From a virus (taxonomy: Duplodnaviria > Heunggongvirae > Uroviricota > Caudoviricetes), in the IMG/VR virus record IMGVR_UViG_2778261218_000003: a stretch of 12,147 nucleotides of DNA; one strand, given 5' to 3'. A program made the translations under genes and the position numbers. Of the stretch, positions 6,428 to 12,080 are shown piece by piece (the first letter of the stretch is position 1; every line of letters begins with the position of its first letter). The notes under the pieces are model-generated. The model saw nothing but the letters and a program-made list of their open reading frames with translations. It made no database searches and was not told where the DNA came from.

Positions 6428-6700
6428 ATGTCTCATACAATCCGTGATAAACAGAAACTGAAAGCGCGTGCCAGTAAGATTCAGGGCCAGGTCGTGGCGC
6501 TCAAGAAAATGCTCGACGAGCCGCACGAATGCGCTGCAGTTTTACAACAGATTGCTGCTATCCGTGGCGCGGTAAACGGTCTGATGCGGGAAGTGATTAA
6601 AGGTCATCTGACGGAACACATCGTTCACCAGGGGGATGAGCTAAAACGTGAAGAAGATCTGGATGTCGTTCTGAAGGTGCTGGATTCATATATCAAATAA
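6428..6700 (+). CDS. rcnR: Ni/Co-responsive transcriptional repressor RcnR (CsoR/RcnR family)
   Basis: 90-aa ORF ([38 protein letters not shown]...), the size and sequence of RcnR, divergent from rcnA. Confidence 0.9.
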
Positions 6701-6789
6701 TTTATTAACGCGATTGTAAAACTGCCGTTTTTCCTCGTTTACAACGCGTGCGCTGGACATTACCATCCTCCTCTGCGATTTATCATCGC

Positions 6790-6841
6790 AACCAAACGAC
6801 TCGGGGTGCCCTTCTGCGTGAAGGCTGAGAAATACCCGTAT
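6790..6841 (+). promoter_or_regulatory. Truncated TPP riboswitch (5' half of the thiM leader aptamer)
   Basis: AACCAAACGACTCGGGGTGCCCTTCTGCGTGAAGGCTGAGAAATACCCGTAT matches my recollection of the E. coli thiM TPP aptamer through P2, P3 and the CUGAGA junction. The expected continuation (CACCTGATCTGGATAATGCCAGCG...) is absent; from 6842 the sequence is unrelated and AT-rich. Confidence 0.7.
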
Positions 6842-6970
6842 TTTCTCATTTAGTGTTTTTTGTGGTTCTGGGTTGTTCGTGGCTGTTTGTGTATGTATTT
6901 GATATTTAAATAATTATTGTATTTTCTTGTTTGTTGTTGTTCGTTGCTGTTCGTAGGGCTTCAACGAAAT

Positions 6971-6994
6971 GTGTGGTCAGTTGTGTGGTCAGTT
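6971..6994 (+). repeat. Perfect tandem 12-bp direct repeat upstream of int (putative arm-type recombinase or IHF binding sites)
   Basis: GTGTGGTCAGTT at 6971-6982 and again at 6983-6994, with further GTTCGT-containing iterations at 6871-6882 and 6933-6957, all between the island junction and the int start. Confidence 0.5.
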
Positions 6995-7029
6995 TTTTGA
7001 GGCTGGAGGACTGAAAAGAGGATCTGATA

Positions 7030-8250
7030 GTGGGAAAAGCACTAAACAAACTGAGCGATTCGACGTTAAAAAAATTGGCGGCTGTCCAGGCAGAAAAAGA
7101 GCGTTTTTACTCCGACGGGGGCGGGCTGGAGATTAAACACTCAAAGGGCGGCAAATTAACCTGGTATTTCCGGTACCGAACGGGAGGCCGTGAGGTTGCC
7201 GCAGAGCGGTTAAAGCTGGGGGCTTACCCTGAATTGTCGCTGAAAGCTGCAAGGGAAAAACGCGCACAGTGCCGGGCATGGCTGGCTGAGGGTAAAAACC
7301 CCCGTTATGAGTTGTGCGCCACAGTACAGGAAGCGCTAAAACCCGTTACGGTGAAGGAGGCGATTAACTACTGGCTGGATGAATATGCGAAGGATAACCG
7401 CAAAGACTACATAAAGCTGGTGCAACGTATGGATAAGCACATCATTTGCCATATAGGGGCAATTCCTCTTGATAAATGCGATACAAGGCAGTGGATCGCA
7501 TGTTTTGACCGTGTACGAAAAAAAGCACCAGTAGCAGCGGGGCACGTCATGCAAACCTGCAAACAGGCGCTAAAGTTCTGCCGCAGGAGGCGCTACGCGT
7601 TCAGTAATGCCCTGGACGATTTGATCGTCAGCGATGTGGGTAAGAGAGCAGAAATTCGCGAGAGGGTGCACAGCAACAGCGAATTAAAGGAAATTCTACG
7701 TGCTATTGATAGTGATGTGTTCGCGCCTTACTACAGCGCGTTAATGCGCTTGCTGATTGTGTTCGGGTGCAGAACGGCAGAGGTCAGACTTTCAGAGATC
7801 AAAGAATGGGATCTGAAAGAAATGTTGTGGACAGTACCAAGAGAGCACAGCAAAACGAAGGTAACGATATTCAGGCCAATCCCCGATGGCATTTTGCCGT
7901 TCATTCAGAAGCTGGTGGATCAGAACCGGCATACAGGGTTATTGCTCGGAGAACTGAAAAAAGATACCACGGTAGCGCAATATGGGCGAAATGCGCATAA
8001 GCGGCTTAAGCAGGAACACTGGACGCTGCATGACTTCCGGCACACGTTTACAACGATGCTGAACGATTTAGGTGTCGATCCGCATATCGTTGAGCACATC
8101 ACAGCGCATCAGATGCCCGGTCAGCAAAAAACCTATAACCATTCACGCTATTTACAGGCGAAGCGGGACGCGTTGAATCTGTGGGTTGAGCGTCTCGATG
8201 TGCTGGCTGGAAATCATGAAAATATTATTATGCTAAAGGTGGCTAAATGA
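7030..8250 (+). CDS. int: Tyrosine site-specific integrase, P4/CP4-57 family
   Basis: 406-aa ORF with a GTG start and RBS AAGAGGA at 7014-7020. The N-terminus is P4-int-like (GGLEIKHSKGGKLTWYFRYRTGGREV...GAYPELSLKAAR). The C-terminal catalytic region carries HDFRHTF (H-x-x-R) and a downstream Tyr (KTYNHSRY). Confidence 0.9.
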   Translation: MGKALNKLSDSTLKKLAAVQAEKERFYSDGGGLEIKHSKGGKLTWYFRYRTGGREVAAERLKLGAYPELSLKAAREKRAQCRAWLAEGKNPRYELCATVQEALKPVTVKEAINYWLDEYAKDNRKDYIKLVQRMDKHIICHIGAIPLDKCDTRQWIACFDRVRKKAPVAAGHVMQTCKQALKFCRRRRYAFSNALDDLIVSDVGKRAEIRERVHSNSELKEILRAIDSDVFAPYYSALMRLLIVFGCRTAEVRLSEIKEWDLKEMLWTVPREHSKTKVTIFRPIPDGILPFIQKLVDQNRHTGLLLGELKKDTTVAQYGRNAHKRLKQEHWTLHDFRHTFTTMLNDLGVDPHIVEHITAHQMPGQQKTYNHSRYLQAKRDALNLWVERLDVLAGNHENIIMLKVAK

Positions 8251-9109: not shown

Positions 9110-9334
9110 ATGAACCAATACAAACAATCCCAATTACCAGCAGATCGAGTAATCCGTGAGGATGAATGTCGAAACTTAACAGGTGTTAGCCGTACCACAC
9201 GCTACGAACTGGAGAAAAAAGGGAATTTCCCGTCACGCCGTAATCTGGGTGGTCGTTCAGTAGGTTGGCTGCTTTCCGAAGTTATGGAATGGGTGCAAAG
9301 CCGTGATCGCGTTAATTCAGGTAAGGCAGCGTAG
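9110..9334 (+). CDS. alpA: AlpA-family phage regulatory protein (small winged-HTH excisionase/activator)
   Basis: The track ORF (9017-9334) is trimmed to the ATG at 9110, giving 74 aa. The protein (MNQYKQSQLPADRVIREDECRNLTGVSRTTRYELEKKGNFPSRRNLGGRSVGWLLSEVMEWV) has the AlpA/Vis-type pattern and sits downstream of int as in CP4-57-like islands. Confidence 0.8.
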   Translation: MNQYKQSQLPADRVIREDECRNLTGVSRTTRYELEKKGNFPSRRNLGGRSVGWLLSEVMEWVQSRDRVNSGKAA

Positions 9335-9342
9335 GGGGAATA

Positions 9343-9471
9343 ATGGCACATAAAACAAAGGCGACCGTAAGAGGTCGCCAGTGGTACAGCACTAAACTTG
9401 AGCGCGTTCAGAATACCAATTTACTAACATCCCGCCAATGCGCTAACGGTATCCACCAGCAATCAACTTAA
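9343..9471 (+). CDS. Possible 42-aa small ORF between alpA and the ant-like gene
   Basis: Found by manual translation: MAHKTKATVRGRQWYSTKLERVQNTNLLTSRQCANGIHQQST, with RBS AGGGGG 4 nt upstream of the ATG at 9343. It contains hairpin copy 1. Coding status is uncertain. Confidence 0.25.
   Translation: MAHKTKATVRGRQWYSTKLERVQNTNLLTSRQCANGIHQQST
9349..9384 (+). repeat. Conserved hairpin element, copy 1
   Basis: ATAAAACAAAGGCGACC-GTAAGA-GGTCGCCAGTGG, with a 7-bp stem GGCGACC/GGTCGCC. Copy 2 at 10583-10619 has identical stem and flanks but a different loop. Confidence 0.6.
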
Positions 9472-9490
9472 TTTTATAGCAGGAGTTTTT

Positions 9491-10291
9491 ATGAAACAGC
9501 GAAAAACGCCCGTACAGGGGCAGGGCTTCGTTCGGCCTGAAAACCAGAATCTGCAAAATTTCGGCGAAATTATCCCGGTTATTTCCGGCATTATTGGCGG
9601 GTGTGAAACCAATATTGTTAGCGCCAGAGCGTTGCATAAGGCGTTAGGTGTAGGTCGCGTTTTCCGTTCGTGGATCAAGGGGCGCATTGAAGAATACGGC
9701 TTCACGGAAGGCGTGGATTATGAGGTTGTTGAATATTTGAGCCGACCCGATCCGGTGAGCGCAAAATCTCGCCAGCAAACAGCTCTTGAGTACATCATTA
9801 CCGTGAACATGGCGAAAGAACTGGCGATGGTCGAACGCACCGAACAGGGCCGCGCCGTTCGCCAGTACTTCATCAAATGCGAGGAGGAGCTACACAAGGT
9901 AGCGCCAGTGCGTTCCGCAGTGTTACGCCGGGAACTGAAAGCCCGTATCACAGTTGCCAGCTACTTTAAGCCAATGTGTGCCGCGCTGGAGGCGTACCGG
10001 GCTGAACTGGGTAAAAACACTCTACAGCACCACTACACCACGGAAGCCAATATGCTGGCGCGTATCGTGCTGGGCGGTATGACTGCCAGACAGTGGGCAC
10101 TGGCGAACGGCATTACAGGCGAACCACGCGACCACATGAGCACGTTGCAGCTTGAGCACCTTTCTTACCTTGAGCAGAGCAATATCACGCTGATTGAGTT
10201 AGGCCAGGGCTACCACCAGCGGAAAGCTGAATTAATTCGTCTTTCGCAGCGTTGGTTAGCCCGTCGCATGGAGGAAAACAGCCATGTGTAA
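9491..10291 (+). CDS. Phage antirepressor-like protein (AntA N-terminal region plus KilAC/ANT-type region)
   Basis: 266-aa ORF with RBS AGGAG at 9481-9485. The N-terminal segment (NIVSARALHKALGVGRVFRSWIKGRIEEYGFTEGVDY) resembles the AntA domain. The central segment (TALEYIITVNMAKELAMVERTEQGRAVRQYFIKCEEEL) resembles the KilAC domain. Both are from memory of those families. Confidence 0.7.
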   Translation: MKQRKTPVQGQGFVRPENQNLQNFGEIIPVISGIIGGCETNIVSARALHKALGVGRVFRSWIKGRIEEYGFTEGVDYEVVEYLSRPDPVSAKSRQQTALEYIITVNMAKELAMVERTEQGRAVRQYFIKCEEELHKVAPVRSAVLRRELKARITVASYFKPMCAALEAYRAELGKNTLQHHYTTEANMLARIVLGGMTARQWALANGITGEPRDHMSTLQLEHLSYLEQSNITLIELGQGYHQRKAELIRLSQRWLARRMEENSHV

Positions 10292-10726
10292 CGCTCTGAC
10301 CGTTACAAAAAGAGAAAGCGCCCCGTTGCCGGAGCGCCTTTGTGAACGAATAGCCTACTGCGCCATATTGCTTACTGTCTACGAGGCAGATTATAGCGTT
10401 GTGGTCGCACAGAGTGAAGGCGCTGATCACCGTTACTACAGCACACCAGAAATGCAGAATATTTTGCTGCAAAATGTCGTTGGTCACGCTGTCCGGAAAG
10501 CAAAAAATTTTGCTGGTGGCGCGACTGATGCGATTTTGTCAGGTAGCCAGGTGCTGATCAATCTGATGTCTGGTTTCGTTCTGGATAAAACAAAGGCGAC
10601 CGCAGAGGGTCGCCAGTGGGTATTACGGCAAATCAAACCTGAATGCATCGCCAACAATGCTGCATTTGTGGCTGGTGGGCAAATCTTTAGTGGAATTTTT
10701 TCCCTGTTGCCTGCACTGGGTAATGG
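10284..10726 (+). CDS. Hypothetical ORF coupled to the ant-like gene; 3' end undefined
   Basis: ATG at 10284 overlaps the ant stop (ATGTGTAA) and is preceded by GGAGG. The first ~150 codons look protein-like, but the frame has no stop until 12080 and runs antisense through three minus-strand genes. The true extent is unknown; it may be a truncated or fused gene remnant. The end coordinate is arbitrary. Confidence 0.3.
10583..10619 (+). repeat. Conserved hairpin element, copy 2
   Basis: ATAAAACAAAGGCGACC-GCAGAG-GGTCGCCAGTGG, same stem and flanks as copy 1, with loop substitutions only. Confidence 0.6.
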
Positions 10727-10909
10727 TTACTTGTATCGCGTATTCCTGCACAAAACAGGACTGCTTTTTTTGATGAAATCCTCAAGCAAAAAACACTCTG
10801 TTGATGCTCTTGGTAATTCTCTGGTGGAAGGATGGGGTTTTATCCCCCATTTTCGTTTACGTTCTTCCAGAAAGGAGGTGAGTATATCTAGTTTCTGTGC
10901 GTCCATCAT
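10727..10909 (-). CDS. Small hypothetical protein (60 aa), distal gene of the minus-strand operon
   Basis: ORF MMDAQKLDILTSFLEERKRKWGIKPHPSTRELPRASTECF... with a weak RBS (AAGAG). Its position in a same-strand array after the RHH gene supports it modestly. Confidence 0.3.
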   Translation of the reverse strand: MMDAQKLDILTSFLEERKRKWGIKPHPSTRELPRASTECFLLEDFIKKSSPVLCRNTRYK

Positions 10910-10966
10910 TTTTCTCTTGGATACTGCTTTGTGCCATGGATCCTCACACCACGGCGCTGATAGTGG

Positions 10967-11146
10967 TTATTTCTGCTCTTCAACATCACCATGTCGTGAT
11001 GTTTTCCAGGTATATAGCCCCATTTTTGTGCGCTTGTGCGTTTTAAGAAATTGCTCAAGGTGGAAGGTTTTAACCTTTCCCTGTTCGGTTTCTTGTGCAA
11101 TTTCTTTCGCCATTTGCTGGGCTAAAAAATCTTTTAATTTAGGCAT
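10967..11146 (-). CDS. Small hypothetical protein (59 aa), second gene of the minus-strand operon
   Basis: Below the ORF-track size cutoff; found by manual translation: MPKLKDFLAQQMAKEIAQETEQGKVKTFHLEQFLKTHKRTKMGLYTWKTSRHGDVEEQK. RBS AGGGGG lies 7 nt upstream and it has balanced, charged, helical composition. It starts 70 nt after the RHH gene stop. Confidence 0.45.
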   Translation of the reverse strand: MPKLKDFLAQQMAKEIAQETEQGKVKTFHLEQFLKTHKRTKMGLYTWKTSRHGDVEEQK

Positions 11147-11215
11147 GGTTCGCCCCCTGCTTACAGTCTGGCGCTCGAGTTCCTTAGGCTCTGGCGCGAA
11201 TGGTGATTATTCTGG

Positions 11216-11515
11216 CTACCCTTTGGCCTTGCGCCGCTGGAGTTCTTCACGAGCAACGGAAACAAGCTGCTCTATATTTTCGGCGAGTTCGACCCCTATT
11301 TTTTCCATTTGTTCCAGCGCATCGAGCGAAGAAACCAGGGGATTTTCTCCGCTTCCTTCTGCCTGGCGGCGGGCGATCTCACCGCGTACAGCCGTAACTA
11401 TAAAATTCGCTTTAGTTTCCCCTGGCTGTAGGGATGCCTCAATGCCACTCACTACTTCATGTGGAAATCTGGCATTCAGTTGCTGTGACTTATTGTTAAC
11501 AGAACTCGTGGACAT
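11216..11515 (-). CDS. Ribbon-helix-helix (Arc/MetJ/CopG-like) DNA-binding protein, possibly YlcI/YnfO-like
   Basis: The track ORF (11216-11692) is trimmed to the ATG at 11515, which has a strong RBS (GGAGGTG). The 99-aa protein (MSTSSVNNKSQQLNARFPHEVVSGIEASLQPGETKANFIVTAVRGEIARR...) has the beta-strand then helix pattern of RHH regulators at its N-terminus. It faces an operator-rich divergent region. Confidence 0.65.
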   Translation of the reverse strand: MSTSSVNNKSQQLNARFPHEVVSGIEASLQPGETKANFIVTAVRGEIARRQAEGSGENPLVSSLDALEQMEKIGVELAENIEQLVSVAREELQRRKAKG

Positions 11516-11558
11516 GTTTGCACCTCCGATTAATAACGGGATGCAGTGTAATACAAAA

Positions 11559-11614
11559 GTGAATACCAAAAAAGACTTGAAATGGTATTCACCAAAATGT
11601 AATCTGAATACCAC
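11559..11614 (+). promoter_or_regulatory. Operator-like repeats in the divergent control region
   Basis: Perfect 10-bp inverted repeat GTGAATACCA (11559-11568) / TGGTATTCAC (11583-11592) with a 14-bp spacer, plus a third half-site TGAATACCAC at 11605-11614. They lie between the RHH gene start (11515, minus) and the plus-strand gene at 11715. Confidence 0.5.
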
Positions 11615-11714
11615 AAGGGCTGATACATGCAATTCAGCAATTGAAACGACGAAGCCCCGCACTGTTGGAGCAGTAACGGGGCTTCTAACCAAACCGTTAA
11701 CAGGAGTAACGATT

Positions 11715-12080
11715 ATGGCTGGAACACAGCATACCCAAACTCACCCTAAATTTATATACACCTTCTTGGCGGTGCACCGTGATTGCATAGCTGACGGTAA
11801 AAACACTGTACACGTAGCCGCCGATACGCTGGTTGATGCCTGCGAGATGCTCAATGACATGGGCTATATCTCGGCAACATGGAAAGGGCGCGAAGAAAAC
11901 ACGCTGTTTATTCAGAAATGCGAGAACAATTTTATCTGGCGTTTTATCGCCCTGAGTACAGCACAACCGCGCGTGATTCACATCGAGGCCACCAGCGAAC
12001 AGGAAGCCCGCCAGCAATCTCCTGATGGCTGCGTGATGGTATTCGCTGCCCGTATTCGCCAGGAGGTGGAACATGTGTAA
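11715..12080 (+). CDS. Hypothetical protein (121 aa), first gene of the rightward operon
   Basis: ATG at 11715 with RBS AGGAG at 11702-11706 (MAGTQHTQTHPKFIYTFLAVHRDCIADGKNTVHVAAD...). It is in frame with, and forms the 3' part of, the 598-aa track ORF. I prefer it to the overlapping minus ORF 11697-12116, which is Cys/His-rich and low-complexity. Confidence 0.55.
   Translation: MAGTQHTQTHPKFIYTFLAVHRDCIADGKNTVHVAADTLVDACEMLNDMGYISATWKGREENTLFIQKCENNFIWRFIALSTAQPRVIHIEATSEQEARQQSPDGCVMVFAARIRQEVEHV

Follow-up and report, generated by a model that had tools for sequence, protein, structure and literature searches.

The P22 sar RNA is antisense to the ribosome-binding region of the ant gene, and the lambda OOP RNA is antisense to the 3' end of cII; both are small RNAs (50-80 nt) with their own promoter and an intrinsic terminator, and each is encoded opposite a gene with a regulatory role in a temperate element. 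In the immunity region of P4 (eta/kil, CI RNA, seqA/seqC), premature transcription termination is prevented by translation of the long open reading frame (ORF) eta (PMC10111431). In gram-negative phage-inducible chromosomal islands (PICIs), a 'Bro zone' in which Ant/BRO-N genes are swapped and immunity RNAs are found follows int-alpA (Mageeney et al. 2023, PMC10111431). Here we analysed a hairpin-containing direct repeat that brackets an antA/AntB-family gene (ant) just after alpA in a 12,147-nt stretch of virus DNA (IMG/VR record IMGVR_UViG_2778261218_000003; the window, meaning this whole stretch). With a probability of about 0.6, we interpret the two copies as minus-strand Rho-independent terminators, each belonging to a conserved leftward promoter-to-terminator module, named E, which is a candidate antisense RNA gene and was doubled by recombination of the ant cassette.

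The window carries an island with the layout of an AlpA-type gram-negative PICI or P4 relative, a type of element for which the variable zone after alpA has been described (PMC10111431). The ant cassette of the window and the shuffling of modules around it resemble that zone, whereas the published account contains neither a leftward promoter-terminator module at the alpA edge nor a duplication of one; no description of module E was found in the literature searched. As in P4, the region lies downstream of an AlpA/Vis homologue, a long ORF runs from the alpA/vis stop to a Kil/Icd-like end, and control would be RNA-based. In the P4 record, ATGATGATG marks the start of eta and overlaps the stop of vis, and the far end of eta is Kil; no E-like hairpin follows vis there. 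The CI RNA is processed from eta's own strand and acts on seqA/seqC, whereas E occupies the opposite strand and has its own predicted promoter. The RNA predicted from E would be similar to sar and OOP in size, in having a promoter and intrinsic terminator of its own, and in lying opposite a regulatory gene, and one of the two window copies sits just upstream of an ant gene. However, E shows no sequence or Rfam relationship to these RNAs, and its predicted target is the start of the eta-like ORF rather than ant. Finally, several traits link the E hairpin to intrinsic terminators found between convergent genes: its stem of 7 bp is GC-rich, its loop has 6-7 nt, a U-tract adjoins the stem, the hairpin is unidirectional and it is placed where rightward and leftward units meet. 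It differs from such terminators in being antisense to the first codons of the opposite ORF and in forming a fixed unit with a promoter-like box 30-45 nt upstream.

The repeat, ATAAAACAAAGGCGACC-N6-GGTCGCCAGTGG, occurs on the plus strand at 9350-9384 and 10585-10619, 1235 nt apart from start to start. This agrees, to within one or two bases, with the original prediction of a hairpin element present twice in direct orientation and flanking ant. The copies are identical at 31 of 35 bases, and all four differences fall within the 6-nt loop (GTAAGA versus GCAGAG). When up to three mismatches were allowed, these two sites were the only ones in the window, and none was found in 200 dinucleotide-preserving shuffles. 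Copy 1 ends 107 nt upstream of the ant ATG (9491), and 294 nt separate the ant stop (10291) from the start of copy 2, which lies at the point where coding switches from rightward to leftward. Homology to related islands exceeds the 35 nt: a profile of the relatives matched window positions 9344-9422 (E-value 4e-13) and 10578-10683 (E-value 3e-23), and matches to the copy 2 region in complete E. coli genomes begin at the first base of the repeat and extend for about 98 nt, to 10682. Rather than standing alone as a 36-nt element, as originally thought, the 35-mer is the best-conserved (left) end of a module of about 90-100 nt that also includes a conserved promoter-like box.

The profile was built from about 190 loci gathered from IMG/VR using two independent anchors, the box and the hairpin. 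One copy of E was present in 177 of the 193 loci scanned, a weak inverted relic in 15, and two direct copies in the window alone. The search of related elements for further copies and for stem covariation, suggested together with the original prediction, found both. In some 190 E. coli satellite islands (gram-negative PICI/P4-like), E is positioned where rightward alpA, with or without cargo, meets the leftward genes hyp and ylcI. Depending on the stretch used as query, between 568 and 832 of 5,426 complete E. coli genomes gave matches, and these directly follow an alpA, ant or BRO-N gene in islands whose flanks are otherwise unrelated. The two window copies represent different alleles ('CAGAATACC'-like for copy 1, 'AACAATGCC'-like for copy 2), and they diverge right after the hairpin. 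The inverted relic, which belongs to a single variant, was seen in locus L088 (1550-1635) and 14 similar loci as CCCACCAGCC..AAATGTGG together with a plus-strand terminator; int and alpA are separated there by a 119-codon ORF, at whose end the relic lies.

Searches for known families gave no match. Rfam yielded nothing beyond noise at either copy with E-values up to 1 (whole window) or up to 10 (9300-10750), and covariance models for C4 and isrK, which represent P1 c4 and P4 CI-type immunity RNAs, had no match in the window. An 18-mer from the box matched genome contigs only by chance, in unrelated phyla. We also considered a repetitive extragenic palindrome or other mobile palindrome and rejected it: the exact stem recurs in a few unrelated phage terminators, and the full element is confined to these islands. 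The logic of the P4 CI/seqA/seqC system, with the copies acting as targets of a trans-acting RNA, was likewise set aside, as relatives are single-copy and C4 and isrK are without a match.

Both copies scored as terminator-like on the minus strand, with a stem of 7 bp (6 GC), a 6-nt loop and a TTTGTTTTAT tail, and minimum-free-energy folds contain the hairpin. In both, the sequence that follows the stem is TTTGTTTTAT on the minus strand, as opposed to AGTGG on the plus strand. The same strand was scored terminator-like in the related loci L278 and L088. Stem pairing was analysed in 33 distinct hairpin rows, defined by alignment columns and taken from loci that had not been selected on the stem. 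In the minus sense 98.3% of stem cells pair, a level that none of 500 shuffles attained, and register slides gave at most 60%. A compensatory switch occurs at the central stem pair, where 18 rows have G-C and 12 have C-G. Selection acts on the structure of the stem, in line with what the original prediction had proposed. Box-anchored scans for two further variants yielded few extra independent stem changes.

Imperfect pairs were unevenly divided between the strands. Thirteen cells would hold an A·C mismatch in the plus sense where the minus sense has G·U, the reverse holds for two cells, and two are broken both ways; about 30 loci carry stem changes of the first kind. Counted as mutational events, the wobble asymmetry is about 8 versus 2 (one-sided p ~0.055), which is suggestive of the minus strand. 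All variants have a T-rich tract after the stem (TTTGTTTT, TTTTCTTT, TTTATTTT, TTTTTTTT), and it is kept while the middle residue that it overlaps on the plus strand varies (K-T-K, K-E-K, K-I-K). The GC stem is adjoined by TTTGTTTTAT when read on the minus strand, and changes to one side of the stem mostly leave G·U pairs in that sense; the minus strand is therefore most likely the functional one. Taken together, the conservation, covariation, strand asymmetry and anatomy of the hairpins argue that they most likely terminate leftward transcription, copy 1 probably being the intrinsic-terminator end of one module (E1) and copy 2 that of the other (E2).

The remainder of the module resembles a promoter directed towards the hairpin. 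In the minus sense, all of about 189 loci share the layout TTGNNN, exactly 17 nt, then CATTGT, TATGAT, TATCAT, TATTCT or TATGCT, with 30-45 nt of variable sequence separating the -10 box from the stem; for each of the four TAT-type -10 variants this distance is exactly 30 nt, although the spacer sequences differ. The -35 TTG and the A2/T6 of the -10 box are maintained at the 17-nt spacing across variants with differing spacers and peptides, and the peptide encoded across the box is unconserved (ERITNNATF, KPEHHSDLL, KHGDDSRYQ, EHIQNTRLS) while the hexamers are conserved. In the O157:H7 locus L278, a promoter scan returned TTGCCC-17-TATGAT at 9/12 together with the terminator. The E1 box scored 8/12 in the same scan, in which the cut-off was 9/12; its -10 hexamer is preceded by TGG (extended -10) and lies 30 nt from the stem, compared with 39 nt in E2. 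Because the promoter-like layout is fixed, we infer that the hairpins close an autonomous antisense RNA gene of 50-60 nt. The RNA predicted from E1 would lie opposite codons ~3-20 of the ORF that follows alpA (9343-9471), and thus in a regulatory position.

On the plus strand, both copies are read in the same frame (KTKAT..GRQW). Copy 1 forms codons 3-14 of a 42-codon ORF whose stop lies 20 nt before the ant ATG, and copy 2 is found within a 598-codon eta-like ORF (Table 1); the short ORF is an eta-like ORF of which only the 5' end remains. Like P4 eta, the eta-like ORFs start at or after the stop of the upstream alpA, vis or cargo gene and end in a Kil/Icd-like segment. In many islands in which E adjoins alpA, a Shine-Dalgarno sequence and an ATG precede AAA ACA AAG by two to three codons. 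The C-terminus of the 598-codon ORF matches NCBIfam phage_ICD_like (aa 550-593, E-value 2.5e-21), an Icd-like (P4 Kil-like) domain, and the ORF passes antisense through the leftward ylcI region before reaching it. Among 183 complete loci, the box frame is open from E to the Icd-like C-terminus in 135, in 54 different lengths of 183-724 codons; in the two remaining frames the median open run is 22 and 2 codons. This open frame lies antisense to real leftward genes such as ylcI; in locus L085 it reaches about 800 codons. Where variants differ in length, the difference is divisible by three or is compensated (+6, +12, -3; a 7-nt loop with a 31-nt linker). The 598-codon ORF looks like a greatly extended P4 eta in which selection maintains an open frame for the sake of translation and not for the protein made. 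The Ash family was considered as a coding explanation and rejected: in locus L004 the Pfam Phage_ASH match (aa 57-127) lies downstream of E, and no Pfam family matches the window ORF.

Comparison with other islands accounts for the presence of two copies. The ant-bearing islands L001 and L002 contain only the downstream copy, and strain JNE170426, which has the same integrase at the same rcnR chromosomal site, has the order alpA-E-hyp-ylcI without ant. Homology to islands of this alpA-E type stops at about 9425-9438, and homology to the alpA-ant intergenic region of ant islands begins at 9450. The junction between E1 and ant was spanned by none of 5,426 complete E. coli genomes. Because ant relatives carry the downstream copy only, ant-less islands have a single E and the homologies switch at 9439-9449, the window is, judged from these comparisons, a recombinant in which an ant cassette bringing E2 was joined immediately to the right of the -35 box of a complete resident E1. 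The original prediction had included scars of a cassette-like acquisition of ant; the link between the duplication and the ant cassette holds, but some 190 islands with a single copy, together with the allelic difference between the window copies, speak against a scar of insertion. A target-site duplication or attachment-site (att) scar was accordingly rejected, since ant-less relatives already have one E, ant relatives lack the left copy and the copies are divergent alleles outside the 35 nt.

Chi sites are frequent in this region. The complement of Chi (CCACCAGC) lies by the junction at 9453-9460, and Chi itself (GCTGGTGG) lies on the plus strand at 10671-10678, inside the E2 box. Altogether the window contains Chi or its complement six times (at 7911, 9453, 10213, 10512, 10671 and 11989) where 0.42 are expected, a number reached in none of 200 shuffles; five of the six fall within 9.4-12.0 kb, one of them inside the E box and one at the ant junction. 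Over 189 satellite loci the density is 0.875 per kb, with a peak of 2.4 per kb at E; the E. coli chromosome averages roughly 0.2 per kb. The enrichment may relate to module shuffling or to RecBCD protection. Locus L004 has, between alpA and E, a 34-codon ORF (2821-2925) similar to the N-terminal part of the window Ant (MNTGKNAQTGAGFRS versus MKQRKTPVQGQGFVR); this is apparently what is left of an ant cassette and fits frequent turnover of cargo at this position.

These features suggest how module E could act. Leftward transcription, started at the module's own promoter and, for copy 2, also reaching it from the hyp-ylcI genes upstream, would be halted by the hairpin before it entered alpA and int in the antisense direction. 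The module would produce an RNA of about 50-60 nt, fully complementary to the first ~20 codons of the post-alpA ORF, the counterpart of P4 eta. Pairing of this RNA would lower translation of the ORF, the long rightward transcript would lose its ribosome cover and terminate early, and the replication genes, from icd-like through primase, would stay silent until AlpA-driven transcription outran the antisense RNA. After the recombination, E1 faces the truncated 42-codon ORF that ends just before ant, and E2 lies inside the new 598-codon ORF. P4 eta and the short antisense RNAs of phages are the analogies behind the proposed lowering of eta-like ORF translation, and with it of read-through to the replication genes; the firing of the promoter, the existence of the small RNA and its action on translation or termination are likewise predicted steps.

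Several observations weigh against the preferred explanation, the main rival of which takes the hairpin simply as the terminator of the ylcI operon. Both window promoters are the weakest versions of the box and fall below the 9/12 cut-off, the E2 -10 hexamer (CATTGT) being also without a TG motif; the leftward promoter and the small RNA are predictions, and Rfam matches neither strand. The box overlaps a Chi site and the frame that is kept open, and either could explain its conservation or the lack of out-of-frame insertions and deletions. In cargo-bearing islands such as this one, 100 codons of the ORF precede E2, so that an antisense RNA made there could not prevent initiation, and the wobble asymmetry comes from about 10 independent events. 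In most relatives a small leftward ylcI is located just upstream of E, so that a plain operon terminator could suffice. Under that explanation no small RNA is made: the hairpin ends the hyp-ylcI mRNA, the box is 3' untranslated region plus Chi plus open-frame constraint, and copy 1 is a relic of recombination that has no function or, at most, shields ant from stray antisense transcription. In its favour, E directly follows the stop codon of the leftward gene in nearly all relatives, the AT skew indicates genuine leftward coding from about 10700 to 11500 (its sign flips at about 10600-10700), and the promoter-like hexamers of the window are weak. It leaves unaccounted for, on the other hand, the exact 17-nt spacing of the -35 TTG and -10 A2/T6 despite differing spacers and peptides, and the intact stem, U-tract and promoter-like box of copy 1, which has no leftward gene upstream. 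Locus L004 also keeps E although no leftward gene is annotated between E and icd; most short variants leave room for a small ylcI, however, so that only L004 supports the persistence of E in the absence of such a gene. We regard the plain terminator as unlikely, yet as the alternative that has to be taken most seriously; readings based on the plus strand, on a coding repeat or on a scar are less supported.

A plus-strand hairpin in the alpA-ant mRNA, acting before and after ant in regulation, processing or protein binding, is improbable. The plus-sense fold of copy 1 is stable (-18.9 kcal/mol, z=-4.2), and the hairpin lies 17 nt after the ATG of the post-alpA ORF, where it could influence initiation. 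However, the stem is followed there by AGTGG and not by a U-tract, the changes seen in about 30 loci leave G·U pairs on the minus strand but A·C mismatches on the plus strand, and the other ant islands are single-copy, so that bracketing is no property of ant. The proposal of paired regulatory hairpins therefore survives in its regulatory character but not in its plus-strand sense, against which the minus-strand terminator anatomy and the G·U bias both speak. We give still less weight to a repeat conserved for its peptide (KTKAT..GRQW) or to a scar (target-site duplication or att-like) left by insertion of ant. Such an origin would explain why the copies lie in direct orientation on either side of ant and share a plus-strand frame, as expected of the duplicated coding segment that the original prediction had named as a contrary explanation, and why insertions and deletions come in threes or are compensated. 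Yet the compensatory stem change converts GRQ to GGP while pairing is kept, and other stem changes are also non-synonymous (R to H); since stem changes alter amino acids yet keep pairing, coding alone is insufficient to explain the conservation. In addition, peptides are unconserved outside AGGQC, the copies differ as alleles right after the hairpin, unlike a fresh duplication, a single copy of E is the normal state and ant islands lack the left copy. Leftward termination within module E thus remains our preferred reading of the repeat.

Table 1. Features of the window discussed in the text, with positions in the 12,147-nt stretch.
Feature	Position	Strand	Remarks
Tyrosine integrase	7030-8250		island gene
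257-aa ORF			island gene
alpA	stop at 9334		Pfam Phage_AlpA
42-codon ORF (MAHKTKATVRGRQWYSTKLERVQN...)	9343..9471	+	Shine-Dalgarno-like GGGGGA; starts 9 nt after alpA stop
Copy 1	9350..9384	-	CCACT 5-nt flank; stem GGCGACC 9379-9373, loop, stem GGTCGCC 9366-9360; U-tract TTTGTTTTAT 9359-9350
E1 predicted RNA	~9403 to ~9352	-	~52 nt; stem 9379-9360
E1 predicted sigma-70 promoter	9410..9438	-	-35 TTGGCG 9438-9433, 17-nt spacer, -10 TATTCT 9415-9410
Recombination junction	9439..9449		left, resident E1 of alpA-E-type island; right from 9450, ant-island alpA-ant intergenic region
antA/AntB-family gene (ant)	9491-10291	+	Pfam AntA, E-value 2.6e-23; cargo of the post-alpA variable zone, between the repeat copies
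598-codon eta-like ORF	10284..12080	+	ATG overlaps ant stop (ATGTGTAA); copy 2 is codons 101-112
Copy 2	10585..10619	-	stem 10614-10608 and 10601-10595, loop CTCTGC, U-tract 10594-10585
E2 predicted RNA	~10647 to ~10587	-	~61 nt; stem 10614-10595
E2 predicted promoter	10654..10682	-	-35 TTGCCC 10682-10677, 17-nt spacer, -10 CATTGT 10659-10654
YlcI/YnfO-family gene	within 11216-11692	-	YlcI_YnfO_N; among the leftward genes
Icd-like coding end	12080		

The island is integrated in E. coli DNA: host genes yehABCD, rcnB, rcnA and rcnR lie to the left of about 7030 and the satellite extends rightward from there, with the insertion point (window 6700-7030) just downstream of rcnR and no tRNA gene in the window. 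Of 5,426 complete E. coli genomes, 72 have an island with the same integrase at this site. Annotated relatives carry DUF4222 and a primase further on.

Further hairpins were observed close to E. A second small leftward unit, H2 (10305-10418, minus strand), consists of a predicted promoter, TTCACT-17-TATAAT (10418-10390), about 45 nt of intervening sequence and an 11-bp GC terminator hairpin (10340-10315) with the tail CTCTTTTTGT; the RNA would be about 75 nt long. In 81 related loci both the terminator and the TATAAT (or TAAAAT) hexamer are conserved; H2 has no Rfam match. In ant-less islands H2 directly follows alpA and its U-tract adjoins the ORF start codon; in the window its hairpin could also terminate ant on the plus strand. 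It is tempting, if doubtful, to group E and H2 as an undescribed family of satellite cis-antisense RNAs whose 3' ends lie by the start codons of very long eta-like ORFs, which would be translated mainly so that ribosomes stay on the transcript; by preventing this translation the RNAs would expose the rightward alpA transcript to termination and hold the replication module off, and variants of the RNA body would represent immunity types. A plus-strand terminator-like hairpin (TCCTGCACAAAACAGGA followed by CTGCTTTTTT) at 10744-10770, inside the eta-like ORF and about 60 nt to the right of E2, could stop rightward transcripts that are not translated. Between ylcI and the Icd-like start, about 100 nt within 11650-11775 are 79-86% identical to unannotated regions of lambdoid and Morganella phages and include a strong hairpin at about 11650-11684; a P4-type immunity RNA would be expected at this place, and the stretch has no C4 or isrK match.

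No master repressor is known that would keep AlpA-type satellites (gram-negative PICIs and P4 relatives) silent. The feature described here is real and selected, and in kind it is ordinary, a terminator; that module E constitutes a new family of antisense RNAs in phage satellites is credible. For annotation, the 'intergenic hairpin' and the 598-codon ORF would be read as one regulatory arrangement, rather than as a structural RNA motif and a real large protein. For the evolution of these islands, cargo such as ant would be swapped at the edges of module E, next to Chi sites. E is a conserved, unannotated module located exactly where read-through from alpA must pass on its way to the replication genes, and its position opposite the start of an ORF that is held open for hundreds of codons makes it a specific candidate for an RNA-based control point.

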